DNA of 44,134 bases. It comes from Wanchaivirus PDP110P2. The translations under genes were made by a program, and so were the position numbers. The stretch lies in the sequence record OZ035745.1; one strand, given 5' to 3'. The notes beneath the pieces were generated by a model that saw only the letters and a program-made list of their open reading frames with translations, was not told the DNA's origin and searched no databases. Shown here in pieces: positions 30-44,134 of this stretch. Every line of letters begins with the position of its first letter. Positions within the stretch are counted from its first letter, which is position 1.

Positions 30-806
30 ATGGCAAAACCGGACTGGGAGGCCATCGAATCGGCATACCTGGCCGGAGTCCTTAGTCTCCGTGATATAGG
101 CGATAAATACGGTGTTACTGAAGGGGCTATCAGGAAGAGGGCTAAAAAGTTTGACTGGGTACGCAATAGCGGTACGCAGGTACGCAAAAATGGTACGCAA
201 AGTGGTACGCAAAAGAGTAAGGCGCGTACCAGCGAAAAGCCTGCCAGCGCTGGCCGCACGCAAAAAAGTACGCAACCAAAAGCCGAGTCTCCACCAGATA
301 CGAAACCGATACGCGGGGTGCGTACCGATCCGCCGACCAACCCATTCCAACCCGGCAACCAGCAGGCGTTAAAGCATGGTGGTTACGCCCGGCGCCTTCT
401 GCTCAAAGATGAGGTCATTGAAGACGCGAAAGCGTTGACACTCGAAGACGAATTATTTCGCCTTCGGGCTAACAACCTCGTCGCGGCAGAGAATATTGGC
501 CGGTGGCTGACCAAGCTGGAAGATGCTGAAGGGGACCAGGAAAGAGAGGTGCTGATGGAAAATATCAGCGCCGCCGAGAAGGCGATGATGCGCAATACCG
601 TTCGTATTGAGTCCATCGTTGGGACGCTTGCGACGGTAGGCAAAATATTTGCTGATACAGACTATCGCAAGGCTGCTACTGATAAGGTGTCGCTGGAGGC
701 CGATCGTCTTCGCCGTGATGCAGGTATTGATGATGGCAACGGAGAGCGTGACCTCAATGACTTCTACTCTGACATCCAAACCGACGCTGAATCCGGTCCT
801 GCGTAG
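30..806 (+). CDS. terminase small subunit (putative)
   Basis: First ORF of the window, GAGGA RBS upstream of ATG 30, overlaps start of large terminase; assignment by position. Contains GTQ-repeat segment encoded by GTACGCA heptamer repeats. Confidence 0.6.
   Translation: MAKPDWEAIESAYLAGVLSLRDIGDKYGVTEGAIRKRAKKFDWVRNSGTQVRKNGTQSGTQKSKARTSEKPASAGRTQKSTQPKAESPPDTKPIRGVRTDPPTNPFQPGNQQALKHGGYARRLLLKDEVIEDAKALTLEDELFRLRANNLVAAENIGRWLTKLEDAEGDQEREVLMENISAAEKAMMRNTVRIESIVGTLATVGKIFADTDYRKAATDKVSLEADRLRRDAGIDDGNGERDLNDFYSDIQTDAESGPA
158..330 (+). repeat. cluster of about 7 direct/inverted GTACGCA heptamer repeats inside terS (candidate pac/terminase recognition site)
   Basis: ggtacgca recurs at 158, 171, 180, 192, 204, 268; inverted copies gcgtacc at 223 and 320. 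Confidence 0.55.
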
Positions 807-2157
807 CTTCTGGACGACGCAGGCGCGTAACAAAGTGCTTTATGGTGGCCGGTCATCGTCAAAATCATGGGATGCCGCTGGCATCGCCATATTTCTGTCG
901 AATAAATACAGCCTGCGCTTTTGCTGTGCACGTCAGATCCAGAACAAAATTGAAGAGTCGGTGTATACCCTGCTCAAAATTCAGATTGACCGCTTTGGCC
1001 TGCGGCATCGTTTCCGCATTCTGAACAACAAAATCATTAACCGGGTGACCGGGTCTGAATTCGTGTTTTATGGGCTCTGGCGTAACATTGAAGAGATTAA
1101 GTCTCTGGAAGGTATCGACGTTCTGTGGCTTGAAGAGGCCCACGCGCTGACGGAATACCAGTGGAAGATACTGGAGCCTACCATCCGTAAAGAGGGCTCA
1201 GAGTGCTGGTTTATCTTTAACCCTGGACTGGTGACTGATTTCGTGTGGCGTAACTTTGTGGTCGATCCGCCAGAAGATACGCTGATACGCAAAATCAACT
1301 ACGATGAAAACCCATTTTTGTCCGACACCATGCTGAAGGTTATCGAGGCCGCTAAGCGTCGGGATCCGGATGGGTTTAAGCATGTCTACGAAGGCGTGCC
1401 AGAGTCGGATGATGATGCGGCCATTATCAAGCTGTCATGGATTGAGGCGGCCGTTGATGCCCATAAAGTCCTTAATTTCGAGCCGAGCGGGCGCAAGCGT
1501 ATTGGCTTCGACGTTGCTGATAGCGGCGCCGATAAGTGCGCTAACGTCTATCGTCACGGCTCCGTCGTGTACTGGGCGGATGAGTGGAAGGCGAAAGAAG
1601 ACGAATTGCTGAAGAGCTGCCAGCGTACGTATCAGGCAGCACTGGAGCGCGATGCTGATATCGTCTACGACTCAATCGGCGTTGGGGCATCTGCTGGCGC
1701 GAAATTCTCAGAAATTAATGAGGATCGTAAGCGCGAAAACATGAACGCATCCCGCATCAACTATCAGCGTTTCAACGCTGGCGCTGGTGTGAATGAGCCG
1801 GACTACGAATACATTGGCATCCCGAACAAAGATTTTTTCGCCAACCTCAAAGCGCAAGCCTGGTGGTTGGTAGCGGATCGCTTCCGTAACACCTTCAACG
1901 CGGTAAAGAACGGCGAGCAGTACCCGGTAGATGAGCTGATAAGCATCGACTCATCCTGCCCGCTGCTGGAAAAGCTCAAGCTGGAACTTACCACCCCGCA
2001 CCGTGATTTTGACAAAAACGGTCGCGTGATGGTGGAAAGCAAGAAAGACCTCGCAAAGCGTGACGTACCATCGCCGAACGTGGCCGACGCGTTCATCATG
2101 GCGTTTGCTCCAACCGATACGGCAATGGATATCTGGGAAGCGCTGGGAAACAGCTAA
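757..2157 (+). CDS. terminase large subunit
   Basis: Long ORF (frame opens at 649); N-terminal ATPase-like motif VLYGGRSSSKSW (Walker A-like) and acidic nuclease-like C-terminal half. Start ambiguous between ATG 730/733/757; 757 gives MTSTLTSKPTLNPVL. Confidence 0.85.
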   Translation: MTSTLTSKPTLNPVLRSFWTTQARNKVLYGGRSSSKSWDAAGIAIFLSNKYSLRFCCARQIQNKIEESVYTLLKIQIDRFGLRHRFRILNNKIINRVTGSEFVFYGLWRNIEEIKSLEGIDVLWLEEAHALTEYQWKILEPTIRKEGSECWFIFNPGLVTDFVWRNFVVDPPEDTLIRKINYDENPFLSDTMLKVIEAAKRRDPDGFKHVYEGVPESDDDAAIIKLSWIEAAVDAHKVLNFEPSGRKRIGFDVADSGADKCANVYRHGSVVYWADEWKAKEDELLKSCQRTYQAALERDADIVYDSIGVGASAGAKFSEINEDRKRENMNASRINYQRFNAGAGVNEPDYEYIGIPNKDFFANLKAQAWWLVADRFRNTFNAVKNGEQYPVDELISIDSSCPLLEKLKLELTTPHRDFDKNGRVMVESKKDLAKRDVPSPNVADAFIMAFAPTDTAMDIWEALGNS

Positions 2158-2394: not shown

Positions 2395-3846
2395 ATGGCG
2401 AAGAAAACAGGACGAGTCGCCACGGCGGATTCGTACGATAACTTTGTTGCCCGTGTCGGAATGCAGCAGCCTAACCAGCATGCCGCATCGACCTACAGGG
2501 CGAACTATACCAGCCGCAACCGCCTGCTCATCGAGTGGGCTTATCGTTCCTCCTGGATTATTGGTGCCGCAGTCGATTCGAAAGCGGACGATATGACCAA
2601 AAAGGGCGTGCGGATCACCAGTGAGATTGACCCGAAACGTCGTGGCATTCTGGAATCACGGTTCGATGAGCTTCAGCTTTGGGATTGCATCAACGAGACG
2701 CTGAAATGGTCCCGGCTGTATGGCGGGGCGGTGGCGCTGATTCTGATTGAAGGTCAGGCACCGCTGACGCCGCTGGTGCTGGATAAGGTTGGCAAGGGCA
2801 GCTTTAAAGGTCTGGCTGTACTTGACCGCTGGATGATTAACCCACAGCTCACCAGGCGCATTAAGGCGCTTGGCCCCAATCTCGGCAAGCCAGAATTCTA
2901 TGACATCGTGACGACGGCGCAGGGGCTTCCTGCGTGGACCGTTCACCACAGCCGACTGATTCGCATGGATGGTGTGAAACTGCCCTACCAGCAGAAAATC
3001 ACCGAAAACGAGTGGGGCATGTCCATTGTCGAGCGCATCTTCGATCGCCTGACTTCCTACGATAGCACCAGCGTCGGCGCCGCCCAGCTTGCCTACAAGG
3101 CACATCTGCGAACGGCAAAGATTAAAAAGCTGCGTGAAATTATCGCCATGGGCGGTAAACCATTCGAAGCGCTGGTTAAACAAATGGAGTTAGTTCGCCA
3201 GTACCAGACGAACGAGGGTATGTCCCTGTTTGATTCGGAGGACGAATTTGAAACACATTCCTATTCTTTCGCGGGCCTGTCTGACCTGCTTAGCGAGTTT
3301 AAAGAGGATATCGCGGGTGCTGTTGGCATTCCTCTTGTCCGTCTGTTCCGCCAGTCACCGAAGGGTTTTTCAACCGGTGACGCTGACCTCGCGAACTACT
3401 ACGACGACGTTGGAACGCTTCAGGAGCGAGATTTACGGCCTCACATCCGCCTGTTATTCGATGTACTGCATCGCTCAGAGTTTGGCGAGCCGTTGCCGCA
3501 AGATTTCACCTTTGAGTTTAACCCCCTGTGGCAGATGAGCGACACCGATCGCTCCACGGTGGCAACCAACACAACTACCGCTCTTGCAACCGCGGTGCGT
3601 GATTTGGGCATGTCGCCGGCTGCTGCTCTGACTGATTTGCGCGAGCTGTCTGACGTTACCGGCATCGGTGCTTCAATTAGCGATGAGGATATCCAGAATG
3701 CGGCGAAACAGTGGCAGGAGACTGAATCTGAAACCAGCCCTCCGCCGCCGATCGGAGGTCCAGTATCAGAAAAGCCTACTGGCGATAGTCGACCAGATAA
3801 ATCAAATCGTCACGGGTTCCTACGATGGTTCACAGGCAAGCGCTGA
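2395..3846 (+). CDS. portal protein (putative)
   Basis: 483-aa ORF directly after terminase with GGAGA RBS; size and position typical of portal; acidic C-terminus. Confidence 0.65.
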   Translation: MAKKTGRVATADSYDNFVARVGMQQPNQHAASTYRANYTSRNRLLIEWAYRSSWIIGAAVDSKADDMTKKGVRITSEIDPKRRGILESRFDELQLWDCINETLKWSRLYGGAVALILIEGQAPLTPLVLDKVGKGSFKGLAVLDRWMINPQLTRRIKALGPNLGKPEFYDIVTTAQGLPAWTVHHSRLIRMDGVKLPYQQKITENEWGMSIVERIFDRLTSYDSTSVGAAQLAYKAHLRTAKIKKLREIIAMGGKPFEALVKQMELVRQYQTNEGMSLFDSEDEFETHSYSFAGLSDLLSEFKEDIAGAVGIPLVRLFRQSPKGFSTGDADLANYYDDVGTLQERDLRPHIRLLFDVLHRSEFGEPLPQDFTFEFNPLWQMSDTDRSTVATNTTTALATAVRDLGMSPAAALTDLRELSDVTGIGASISDEDIQNAAKQWQETESETSPPPPIGGPVSEKPTGDSRPDKSNRHGFLRWFTGKR

Positions 3847-6213: not shown

Positions 6214-7155
6214 ATGCCAATGACATTTGACCAGGCGACAGTCGACGGCACTGGTGCCTTTCTTGTCCATGAGCTGGAGCGTCTCGATCAGACACTGAAT
6301 CTGCCGCTGGTGAATTTCACCTGGTCGCGCGATATCCAGTTGCGTGAAGACGTGTCTATTGCTGATGAGATCAGCTCGTTCACTAACACCACTTTTGCTG
6401 CTGCCGGTACGCCGAATGCTAACGGTAAAAACTGGCTTAGCAAAGCCGCGACCGCGATGGCTGGCCTTAACGTCGACATCGCAAAAACTGGCTTCCCGCT
6501 CACACTGTGGGGTATGGAGCTTGGCTGGACCGTTCCTGAATTGCAGGCAGCTGCGCAGGTTGGTCGCCCGATCGACACGCAGAAGTACGACGGCATGCAG
6601 CTGAAGTGGAACATGGACACGGACGAGCAGGTTTATATCGGCGATTCCGGTCTGAACGTTAAAGGCCTGCTGAACCTGACGCAGGTAACGCCGACCAACG
6701 CCGCGAAGACCTGGGCGACCTCCACCGCTGACGAAATCCGGGCGAGCATTAATGCCGGGTTGAGTGCTGCGTGGGCCAACTCAGCTTACTCCATGGTACC
6801 GACGGACCTGCTGATCCCGCCGGAGCAGTTCTCTCTGCTGGCAAGCACCATCGTATCCAGCGCTGGTAACCAGTCCCTGCTGACCTATCTGGAAACCAAC
6901 ACCATCGCATACCACCAGAACGGGCGTCCTCTGAACATCCGTCCGGTGAAATGGGCGAAAGGTCGTGGCGTGTCGAACTCTGATCGCATGATGTTCTACA
7001 CCAACGACAAGAAATACGTTCGCTTCCCGATGGTTCCGCTGATGAGCGTGCCGATCCAGTATCGCGGCCTGTATCAGCTCGTAACCTATTACGGCAAGCT
7101 GGGTGCAGTAGAGCCGGTTTATCCGGAAACTCTGGCCTACGTCGACGGCATCTAA
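6214..7155 (+). CDS. major capsid protein (putative, DUF2184-like)
   Basis: 313-aa ORF with AAGGA RBS, in canonical capsid position, followed by a stable GNRA-loop hairpin. Confidence 0.6.
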   Translation: MPMTFDQATVDGTGAFLVHELERLDQTLNLPLVNFTWSRDIQLREDVSIADEISSFTNTTFAAAGTPNANGKNWLSKAATAMAGLNVDIAKTGFPLTLWGMELGWTVPELQAAAQVGRPIDTQKYDGMQLKWNMDTDEQVYIGDSGLNVKGLLNLTQVTPTNAAKTWATSTADEIRASINAGLSAAWANSAYSMVPTDLLIPPEQFSLLASTIVSSAGNQSLLTYLETNTIAYHQNGRPLNIRPVKWAKGRGVSNSDRMMFYTNDKKYVRFPMVPLMSVPIQYRGLYQLVTYYGKLGAVEPVYPETLAYVDGI

Positions 7156-16116: not shown

Positions 16117-16848
16117 ATGGGCGTATCAAGCCAAACCCGTAGTGGGGCGCTGGCGGAGGTTCTGGCGTCTGAGCGAAAGACGCTTAGCGAGCAAATGCGC
16201 GTAGCACTGCCGGGGATCATCCAGTCATTCGACCCAGAATCTTTGACGGCTGTTGTTCAGCCAGCGATCCGCTACATCGAGCGCGACAACGACGGCAACA
16301 AAAGCACGAAGGATTATCCGCTGCTGGTGGATGTTCCAGTTGTATTCCCCCGCGGGGGCGGCTGTACGCTCACTTTTCCCGTTAGCGAAGGCGATGAGTG
16401 TCTGGTGATATTTGCCGACCGCTGCATTGATTTCTGGTGGCAAAGCGGGGGTGTACAGGAGCCGGTAGACGGGCGCATGCATGATTTATCGGATGCGTTC
16501 TGTATCGTGGGCCCGCAGTCGCAGGCGAAGAAAATCGGCGGCATCAGCACTACGGGAGCGCAGCTGCGTACCGATGATGGTTCGGCTTTCATTGAGGTGG
16601 CCGCCGGAGGGGATATCACTGCCACCACCGCCGGCAGCGCGACTATTAACGCCCCGGAAATCGTCCTTAACGGCAACGTGACGATCAACGGCAACCTGTC
16701 GCAAGGAATGGGTGAGAGAGGAGGCACGGCCACAATGCACGGCCCGGTCACCGTAACCAACGATGTGACAGCAGGCGGTAAGAGCCTGATGACGCACATG
16801 CATGGTGGGGTTGAGCATGGTAACGACAGCACCGGGGGGCCTGAATAA
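16117..16848 (+). CDS. putative baseplate central spike protein (Gp138_N-like)
   Basis: 243-aa ORF; C-terminal repetitive beta-helix-like segment (ITATTAGSATINAPEIVLNGNVTINGNL). Confidence 0.55.
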   Translation: MGVSSQTRSGALAEVLASERKTLSEQMRVALPGIIQSFDPESLTAVVQPAIRYIERDNDGNKSTKDYPLLVDVPVVFPRGGGCTLTFPVSEGDECLVIFADRCIDFWWQSGGVQEPVDGRMHDLSDAFCIVGPQSQAKKIGGISTTGAQLRTDDGSAFIEVAAGGDITATTAGSATINAPEIVLNGNVTINGNLSQGMGERGGTATMHGPVTVTNDVTAGGKSLMTHMHGGVEHGNDSTGGPE

Positions 16849-43642: not shown

Positions 43643-44106
43643 GCAGAGTAACCGCGATTATCTCAGCTCTGGTTATCTGCATCATCGTTTGCCTGTCATG
43701 GGCTGTTAATCATTACCGTGATAACGCCATCGCCTACAAAGAGCAGCGCGATAACAAGGCCAGTGAACTGGAGAAGGTGAACGCCACCATTACTGACATG
43801 CAGCAGCGCCAGCGTGATGCTGATGCACTCGATGCTAAATACACGAAGGAGTTAGCCGATGCAAAAGCTGAAAATGATGCTCTGCAGCGCAAGCTTGATA
43901 ATGGTGGTCGGGTGCTCGTCAAAGGCAAGTGTCCAGTGTCAGCCGCAACCCAAACCACCGGCGCCGCCAGCATGGGCGATGATGCCACCGTCGAACTCTC
44001 TGCAGTTGCTGGACGAAACGTTCTTGGTATCCGATCCGGAATCGTCAGCGACCAAACAGCCCTGAGAGCGCTGCAGGAATACATCACCACGCAGTGCCTG
44101 AAGTAA
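43639..44106 (+). CDS. Rz: i-spanin Rz
   Basis: N-terminal TM helix and coiled coil; lambda Rz-like; overlaps R stop. Confidence 0.9.
43859..44065 (+). CDS. Rz1: o-spanin Rz1 (embedded in Rz, +1 frame)
   Basis: Embedded ORF with lipobox-like VVGC and Pro-rich tail, resembling lambda Rz1. Confidence 0.75.
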
Positions 44107-44134
44107 GGCATTACAGAGCCACTTCCAGAGGTGG

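Follow-up and report, generated by a model that had tools for sequence, protein, structure and literature searches.

A repeated octamer within a phage small terminase gene covaries with the predicted TerS recognition helix and is a probable pac-type recognition site

Introduction

The cosB site of phages lambda, 21 and N15 is an array of R-sequences bound by the winged helix-turn-helix (HTH) domain of gpNu1, and specificity in these systems is set by matched changes in the recognition helix and in the repeats, which are exchangeable between phages. The pac site of the headful phage P1 comprises seven TGATCA/G hexamers in pacA, its small-terminase gene. Here we analyse an array of short repeats inside terS, the gene for the small terminase subunit (TerS), in the sequence of Wanchaivirus PDP110P2 (record OZ035745.1; 44,134 nucleotides (nt), referred to as a whole as the window), a Klebsiella temperate-phage genome. 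Our comparisons suggest that the array is probably a pac-type site read by the N-terminal HTH of the very protein whose gene contains it.

Sequence-specific DNA recognition by pac-type TerS proteins is disputed and unresolved: in vitro binding to defined pac sites has mostly failed, and neither the wrapping nor the threading model accounts for sequence specificity (PMC9611059, a 2022 review). Few pac sites have been defined, that of ES18 being still undefined in 2024; in P22, a synonymous 'wobble' mutation of pac uncouples the site from the protein (PMC11260489). We found no description of GTACGCA, of the octamer GGTACGCA or of its variant octamers in a terminase or pac context in the searchable literature.

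Results

The terS gene (30..806, + strand) encodes 258 residues that match phrog_370 over residues 1-257 (E=2e-99) and lies directly upstream of terL. GTACGCA has eight exact matches on both strands of the whole window, for which shuffled sequences predict 4.74, and seven of the eight are clustered within 159-325, in direct orientation at 159, 172, 180, 193, 205 and 268 and inverted at 319. The Poisson probability of finding at least seven in one given 173-nt stretch is ~1e-16, or ~3e-14 when corrected for the number of stretches. An earlier, sequence-only reading of this DNA had counted about seven copies in about 170 bp within terS, and the count is borne out. The true repeat unit is the octamer GGTACGCA, one base longer than the heptamer.

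The GGTACGCA array, which we propose as the TerS recognition (pac) site, extends over 158..326 and contains copies in both orientations, with a conserved core at 158-230 and auxiliary copies at 255-274 and 319-326. The first five copies are exact and lie on the + strand: copy 1 (158..165) is read (W)VRN in codon phase 2, copy 2 (171..178) is read GTQ in phase 0, copy 3 (179..186) abuts copy 2 and is read (Q)VRK in phase 2, and copies 4 (192..199) and 5 (204..211) are both read GTQ, the 12-nt unit of copy 4 being absent from phage ST512-KPC3phi13.5. Copy 6 (223..230, - strand) is inverted and has one mismatch (GGTACGCG), its coding strand being read ART; an inverted copy is kept at this relative position in the pAEv1818, SEN34, HK639 and GF-2 genes. 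Further along the + strand lie a degenerate copy with two mismatches (CGCACGCA, 255..262), which is an exact GTACGCA in most close relatives, and copy 7 (AGTACGCA, 267..274), which is read STQ and has one mismatch to the octamer and an exact heptamer. Copy 8 (319..326, - strand) is an exact inverted GGTACGCA read VRT, and its role is uncertain because it is not conserved in Chronis or pAEv1818. As the spacings between octamers are uneven (13, 8, 13, 12, 19 nt and so on), the array is not a tandem repeat.

A lone GGTACGCA is found outside the array, at 16565-16572 on the - strand. One GTACGCA outside the array against 4.7 expected by composition amounts to a mild depletion (P ~0.05), which could reflect avoidance of stray TerS sites.

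Within terS, the copies of the octamer fall into three codon registers and onto both strands, giving GTQ, VR[NK] and, where inverted, ART or VRT. The repetitive GTQ peptide described in the sequence-only reading holds for three copies, with a fourth read STQ, and fails for those read VRN, VRK, ART and VRT. Codon choice is fixed throughout: all five threonines of the TQ pairs are ACG, both valines of the VR pairs are GTA and the glycines of GTQ are GGT in three out of three cases, a joint probability of ~2e-6 under the window's own codon usage. A repeat kept at the protein level would use one frame and one strand and leave synonymous sites free, which is not what we observe. The use of three registers and both strands, together with the fixed synonymous positions, indicates that the array is selected at the DNA level and is not a peptide repeat.

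The N-terminal part of TerS (residues 1-47, encoded by 30..170, + strand) is predicted to form a three-helix HTH, with AlphaFold2 (AF2) helices at residues 6-14, 20-27 and 31-40 and a predicted local distance difference test score (pLDDT) of ~70. Its matches to many HTH families, among them AsnC-type, HTH_50 and Sigma70_r4, are below threshold but consistent, and hits to TyrR and LrpA profiles together with the sigma region 4 HTH matches place residues 31-40 on the recognition helix. The codons of this predicted helix, E31-G-A-I-R-K-R-A-K-K40, occupy 120..149 on the + strand, as aligned with HTH families. The families phrog_1206, 51, 1889, 509 and 2606 share the N-terminal HTH and match TerS over residues 1 to ~75 only. 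Among the matches listed by a protein homologue search with TerS, all were at least 91% identical.

In the AF2 model, residues 44-102 are disordered (pLDDT <50) and long helices follow from residue 111 on. The array corresponds to codons 43-99 and coincides with this predicted disordered, Lys/Thr/Gln-rich linker, where, according to the model, the protein places the weakest constraint on the DNA sequence. The model derives from a shallow 20-sequence alignment and has a mean pLDDT of 57, an overall confidence so low that we use it for domain boundaries only. A Foldseek comparison of the model with the PDB returned generic coiled coils only (E >0.5), so no structural homologue can be claimed, and a search of the PDB with the TerS sequence yielded nothing relevant (best E-value 0.11).

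Indirect but strong support for recognition of the array by TerS comes from comparing genes with different recognition helices. Loci were collected by N-terminal protein similarity only, leaving 323 distinct 420-nt segments after de-duplication, and the motif was called de novo by taking, in the 310 nt that follow the HTH, the strand-collapsed 7-mer with the highest copy number. Genes with the window's helix, EGAIRKR, carry GGTACGCA in 68/68 distinct segments. The helix DTAIRK[KR] (including DTAIRKK) is accompanied by GGTTCGCA in 66 of 68 segments, HATILKR by GGTAACCA in 60 of 62 and HGAINKR by GGTATCCA in 53 of 62. Smaller classes pair HQAISKR with GGTTGCC (32/33), HNTILKR with GTGACCA (10/10), HTAINKR with GGTTTCC (3/3) and HVAI[GN]KR with GGTTACC (4/5). 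Every motif variant fits GGT-N-N-N-C-A, and TerS residues 31, 32, 33 and 35, which vary between classes, change together with octamer bases 4-6. The offsets of the sites from the HTH are also conserved (for example 161, 176 and 188, or 161, 173, 186 and 202(-)). These comparisons indicate that the octamer covaries with the TerS recognition helix.

Several of the switches between classes are silent at the protein level and involve all copies of a gene together: V-R is encoded by GTA-CGC or GTT-CGC, V-S by GTA-TCC or GTT-TCC, and V-T by GTA-, GTG- or GTT-ACC. Unless selection acts on a sequence that is read as double-stranded DNA, such joint switches are difficult to account for. The association was also recovered in the reverse direction: among 80 IMG/VR loci picked solely for a pair of GGTACGCA copies spaced 3-6 nt, ~62 have an open reading frame in which an E[GA]AIRK-type HTH immediately precedes the copies.

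The sequence-only reading had named the repeats as a candidate terminase recognition or packaging-initiation site and their conservation in related terS genes as a check. The check is passed, in that every terS with the same recognition helix has the array (68/68 distinct), and the candidate site gains strong comparative support from these genes and from the matched octamers that accompany other helices.

Conservation among close relatives was assessed with 80 IMG/VR loci selected by similarity to the first 50 TerS residues plus GenBank phages, 85 loci in total. The array is present in all 62 distinct terS variants of this set, at +129 to +290 from the ATG, and the flanks of ~5 kb around terS contain 0-2 copies only. 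Copy number ranges from 5 to 11 and changes by 12-nt in-frame units. Even near-identical phages differ, with 5+1 copies in ST512-KPC3phi13.5 versus 10+1 in IMG/VR locus L046 and indels at 192-203 and 256-267 (relative to L002 and L046), showing that the array tolerates gain and loss of copies or makes use of them.

The terS region of the window is 96-98% identical to that of GZ7, ST405-OXA48phi1.2 and others. GZ7 stands at 97.8% identity. Chronis is ~93% identical over the HTH and the array and diverges sharply after ~nt 316. In the Aeromonas phage pAEv1818, whose TerS is 54% identical, five direct and one inverted copy are kept and the spacers have diverged. In SEN34, HK639, GF-2, Klebsiella phage 2b and Erwinia phage EhrS_59, TerS similarity is limited to residues 1 to ~55-68, and three to four GGTACGCA copies plus an inverted one, mostly read V-R-K, stand right after the HTH codons.

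The partner large terminases (TerL) fall into at least four groups without detectable mutual similarity: the window and GF-2 (75% identical, Sf6 type); EhrS_59 and Klebsiella phage 2b, termed '933W-type headful' (PMC7317114); SEN34; and HK639 with pAEv1818. In Edwardsiella phage GF-2 (locus L086, 575-1638 against 754-1750 of the window), the 75% identical TerL accompanies an unrelated TerS core of the SEN34 type, so that the same TerL type works with two unrelated TerS cores that share the HTH and array only. The occurrence of the HTH and array with unrelated TerS cores and several TerL groups indicates that they form a module, recombined onto different TerS cores and packaging motors.

Phage Sf6 is a headful packager whose first cut is spread over a broad region. 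The product of the window's terL (754..2157, + strand; Pfam Terminase_3, E=5e-40), a gene that overlaps the end of terS, aligns over its full length with Sf6 gp2 (PDB 4idh, E=1e-80). Circularly permuted, terminally redundant DNA would be expected from this close homology. EhrS_49 and EhrS_59, which carry the same HTH-plus-array cassette, have been reported experimentally to be headful (PMC7317114), and the first cut of ES18 is spread over ~1 kb (PMC11260489). A headful mode is predicted for the window phage by homology, through its TerL and its cassette relatives. The suggestion in the sequence-only reading that the site would define the genome ends is too strong for a phage with an Sf6 gp2-type TerL, as in headful phages only the first end of a series lies near pac and the array would not define unique ends.

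The annotated start of terL is ambiguous, relatives placing it at the equivalents of 718, 754 or 814, all of which overlap or abut the terS stop at 806. The GenBank records of the relatives RCIP0034 and Mulock open at terL starts, which is a convention and not a measured terminus, and we found nothing on packaging in the literature on phage Mulock.

In related contigs, the 30 nt that end the window run straight into the 30 nt that begin it, and the two ends of the window do not overlap. The window therefore looks like a closed circular sequence that was opened at an arbitrary point, 29 nt upstream of terS, and we did not take its boundaries for real termini. A conserved hairpin that spans the circular junction (44100-44134 joined to 1-12), 20-60 nt before the terS ATG, contains the point at which the window was opened. 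The hairpin, GGCAUUA..GAGCCACUU-CCAG-AGGUGGCUC..UAAUGUC, has a dG of -23.7 kcal/mol (z -4.2) and an inverted repeat core GAGCCAC-N8-GTGGCTC. Lacking a U-run behind it, the hairpin does not qualify as a classic terminator; it might act in RNA processing or in translation, or be a DNA site. The 57-nt leader is conserved whatever gene lies upstream. Leader and hairpin accompany EGAIRKR genes at 56 loci and HATILKR genes at 11 and, unlike the array, do not track specificity, for which reason the hairpin was rejected as a specificity determinant.

Discussion

We conclude that the array (158-326, core 158-230) is probably a cis-acting, pac-type recognition site for the TerS N-terminal HTH, judging from the coding pattern and the cross-class comparisons. 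On the simplest account the octamers are sites bound by the TerS HTH, and a packaging signal is then the most likely function, since TerS exists to recognise phage DNA for packaging. The array also lies where pac sites are found, in or next to the small terminase gene.

We infer physical binding, the geometry of the TerS oligomer, the recruitment of TerL and the position and direction of the first cut, and the mechanism might run as follows. TerS would oligomerise through its long helical core (residues ~111-230) and display several HTHs on flexible linkers of ~60 residues. Each HTH would read one octamer through E31, G32, A33 and R35, and 5-11 closely placed copies would provide avidity and specificity beyond those of a single weak HTH-DNA contact. 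The bound complex would then recruit the Sf6-type TerL, which would make a first, probably imprecise cut nearby, and packaging would continue by headfuls. The disordered linker would carry the site in its codons, ~10-60 bp beyond those of the reading helix, and, because of this placement, reader and site would be inherited and exchanged as one specificity cassette.

Several observations weigh against this interpretation. Support for the array as a pac site is comparative throughout, not physical. The specificity classes coincide with clades, so the counts, which ignore kinship, represent ~8 independent covariation events and not hundreds. Three-copy arrays are individually not significant: in dinucleotide shuffles of the 310-nt region, 99/300 and 53/300 shuffles reached the observed count. 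Because A-runs inflate overlapping 7-mer counts, such single-sequence shuffles are a poor test, and we weighed three-copy arrays by positional conservation and cross-class covariation instead. Spacings of 8, 12, 13 and 15 bp do not fit simple binding to the same face of the DNA, and the AF2 model combines low overall confidence with the lack of a significant fold match. No obvious GGTNNNCA-type repeat follows the HTH in Orisa03 (L098, HVSIHKR), AP1 (L097, HGAVNKR) or PdC23 (L099, EGAIRKQ); either the sites of these phages lie elsewhere or are more degenerate, or the rule has exceptions. Finally, loci L350 and L361 hold a homologous array without a cognate HTH upstream.

The latter two arrays (L361 6690-6834 and L350 7398-7510, in IMG/VR contigs 2597490214_000015 and 3300029782_000360, respectively) consist of array-only DNA that is 72-77% identical to the window, with intact GGTACGCA copies and diverged spacers. 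In L361, a truncated HTH of a different type (a phrog_370 N-terminus of 52 residues) lies ~680 nt upstream of the array, and an open reading frame resembling a TerS core without HTH lies ~400 nt downstream. These loci could be satellites or decayed, defective prophages that keep or borrow a helper phage's packaging signal or TerS.

Covariation demonstrates that HTH and motif match, not what the binding does, and the array could in principle serve as an autoregulatory operator on terS and terL or as an anchor that keeps newly made TerS at its own genome, being located within transcribed and translated terS, just upstream of terL. We consider such a different main role for the TerS site unlikely. 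TerS DNA-binding domains have an established task, to recognise the genome for packaging, and a pac site inside terS is the norm for P22 and SPP1 (PMC9611059, PMC11260489). A roadblock inside a gene would be an odd control point, and the cassette is swapped as a unit between TerS cores and TerL types, which better fits a specificity determinant. Moreover, no case of TerS serving as a repressor is known to us, which counts against an operator.

The prospects are similarly poor for a cos-type packager with fixed ends, in which the array would be a cosB-like site with a nick made next to it, possibly at the inverted repeat that precedes terS by 20-60 nt. The first base of the window falls inside that stable, conserved inverted repeat, the window starts 29 nt upstream of terS, and HK639 has a linear record that begins 50 nt before terS; in lambda, too, cosB consists of TerS-HTH sites arrayed beside the cut site. 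Against this, the TerL of the window is a full-length homologue of the headful Sf6 gp2, and not of the lambda gpA or HK97 type, the ends of the window are without overlap and contiguous in relatives, and the hairpin and leader are shared by two HTH classes. Relatives with the same cassette have in addition been reported to be headful (PMC7317114).

Loci L341, L374 and L392, in which GGTACGCA arrays occur in contexts without a TerS HTH, raise the question of whether the octamers are read by some other protein, for example a host factor, a late regulator of the phage or an enzyme of restriction-modification or methylation, with the tie to the TerS HTH reflecting mere linkage. We think this very unlikely, given that each of at least eight motif variants goes with its own helix variant, encoded 10-60 bp away. 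The cassette is present in phages of Klebsiella, Salmonella, Edwardsiella, Erwinia, Aeromonas and Pseudomonas with unrelated neighbouring genes; since it moves among them, the HTH is the only constant partner of the array. The octamer, moreover, is not palindromic and lacks GATC.

The three loci belong to unrelated, GC-rich phage contigs. L341 (~6791-6840) and L374 (~3519-3560) each have three to four GGTACGCAGCC units with an 11-nt period and an inverted copy, just upstream of a SNF2-like helicase gene (MSFTPRPYQLD), and L392 (~3270-3480) has more than 12 GGTACGCA copies in both orientations. These arrays look like operators or iterons of some other protein.

Least probable of all is that the repeats are a by-product of slippage expanding and contracting a low-complexity GTQ/VRK linker, without a function of the DNA sequence itself: the array does encode a predicted disordered Lys/Thr/Gln-rich linker, its copy number varies from 5 to 11 by 12-nt in-frame units in close relatives and all copies of SEN34-type genes are in one frame (V-R-K), but this explanation is largely refuted by the three registers and both strands used in one gene, the fixed synonymous sites (P ~2e-6), the silent Val-codon changes made across all copies in step with the helix, the uneven spacing, and the retention of motifs but not spacers between Klebsiella and Aeromonas phages.

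Returning to the array as a TerS recognition site, a more tentative extension, to which we give somewhat less than an even chance, is that HTH and array constitute a portable, self-contained packaging-specificity cassette with a simple code in which helix positions 1, 2, 3 and 5 specify bases 4-6 of GGT-N-N-N-C-A. By comparison of the classes, the code would pair Arg35 with CG, Leu with AC, Asn with TC and Ser with GC; for position 1, Glu would go with A and Asp with T at base 4. Lambdoid and other temperate phages of Enterobacterales, Aeromonas and Pseudomonas would have the cassette in common, and it could be fitted to TerS cores and TerL motors that are unrelated.

With a short, countable site (GGTACGCA) and a natural series of at least eight matched helix and site variants, this family makes base-specific readout by multiple HTHs of one TerS oligomer directly testable. 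The pac sites of many Klebsiella, Salmonella, Enterobacter and Pseudomonas prophages may become locatable from sequence alone, the start and direction of lateral or generalised transduction beside such prophages predictable, and packaging signals designable for phage-based DNA delivery. If the recognition code is true, pac sites and packaging and transduction specificity would be predictable for thousands of prophages and could be reprogrammed by design.

Among described systems, P1 pac likewise consists of short repeated elements clustered inside the small-terminase gene. The P1 elements, however, are Dam (GATC) sites that are regulated by methylation and flank a defined cut, whereas GGTACGCA lacks GATC, which sets the array apart from a P1-type site. 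P22, a temperate enterobacterial headful phage, also has its pac within the coding sequence of terS (gene 3), but this is a single 22-bp asymmetric sequence with no repeat array, and gp3 is without a canonical N-terminal HTH and unrelated to the TerS of the window. The cosB sites resemble the array in being repeated sites read by the N-terminal HTH of TerS, yet they are non-coding, lie upstream of Nu1 and next to cosN, use IHF and belong to phages with cohesive ends. In the window, all copies are inside the terS frame (codons 43-99) and not at a non-coding position, TerL is Terminase_3/Sf6 gp2-like rather than a cos-type large terminase, and no cos site is evident.

The SPP1/SF6 pac (pacL with its box a repeats, pacC and pacR, served by the small terminase G1P) is similar in having a signal in the 5' part of terS and its surroundings, made up of several short repeated boxes. 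These boxes are thought to be contacted by the HTHs of an oligomeric TerS, with TerL cutting nearby (PMC9611059), and SPP1 and SF6 are headful phages, as the window phage is predicted to be by homology. The two systems differ in motif and in TerS family, for which we found no match in sequence or fold, and the window family has 5-11 copies of one octamer in ~75-170 bp, all in linker codons. Whereas SF6/SPP1 binding has been reported to be largely sequence-independent, the family described here presents a clear series of covarying helices and motifs.

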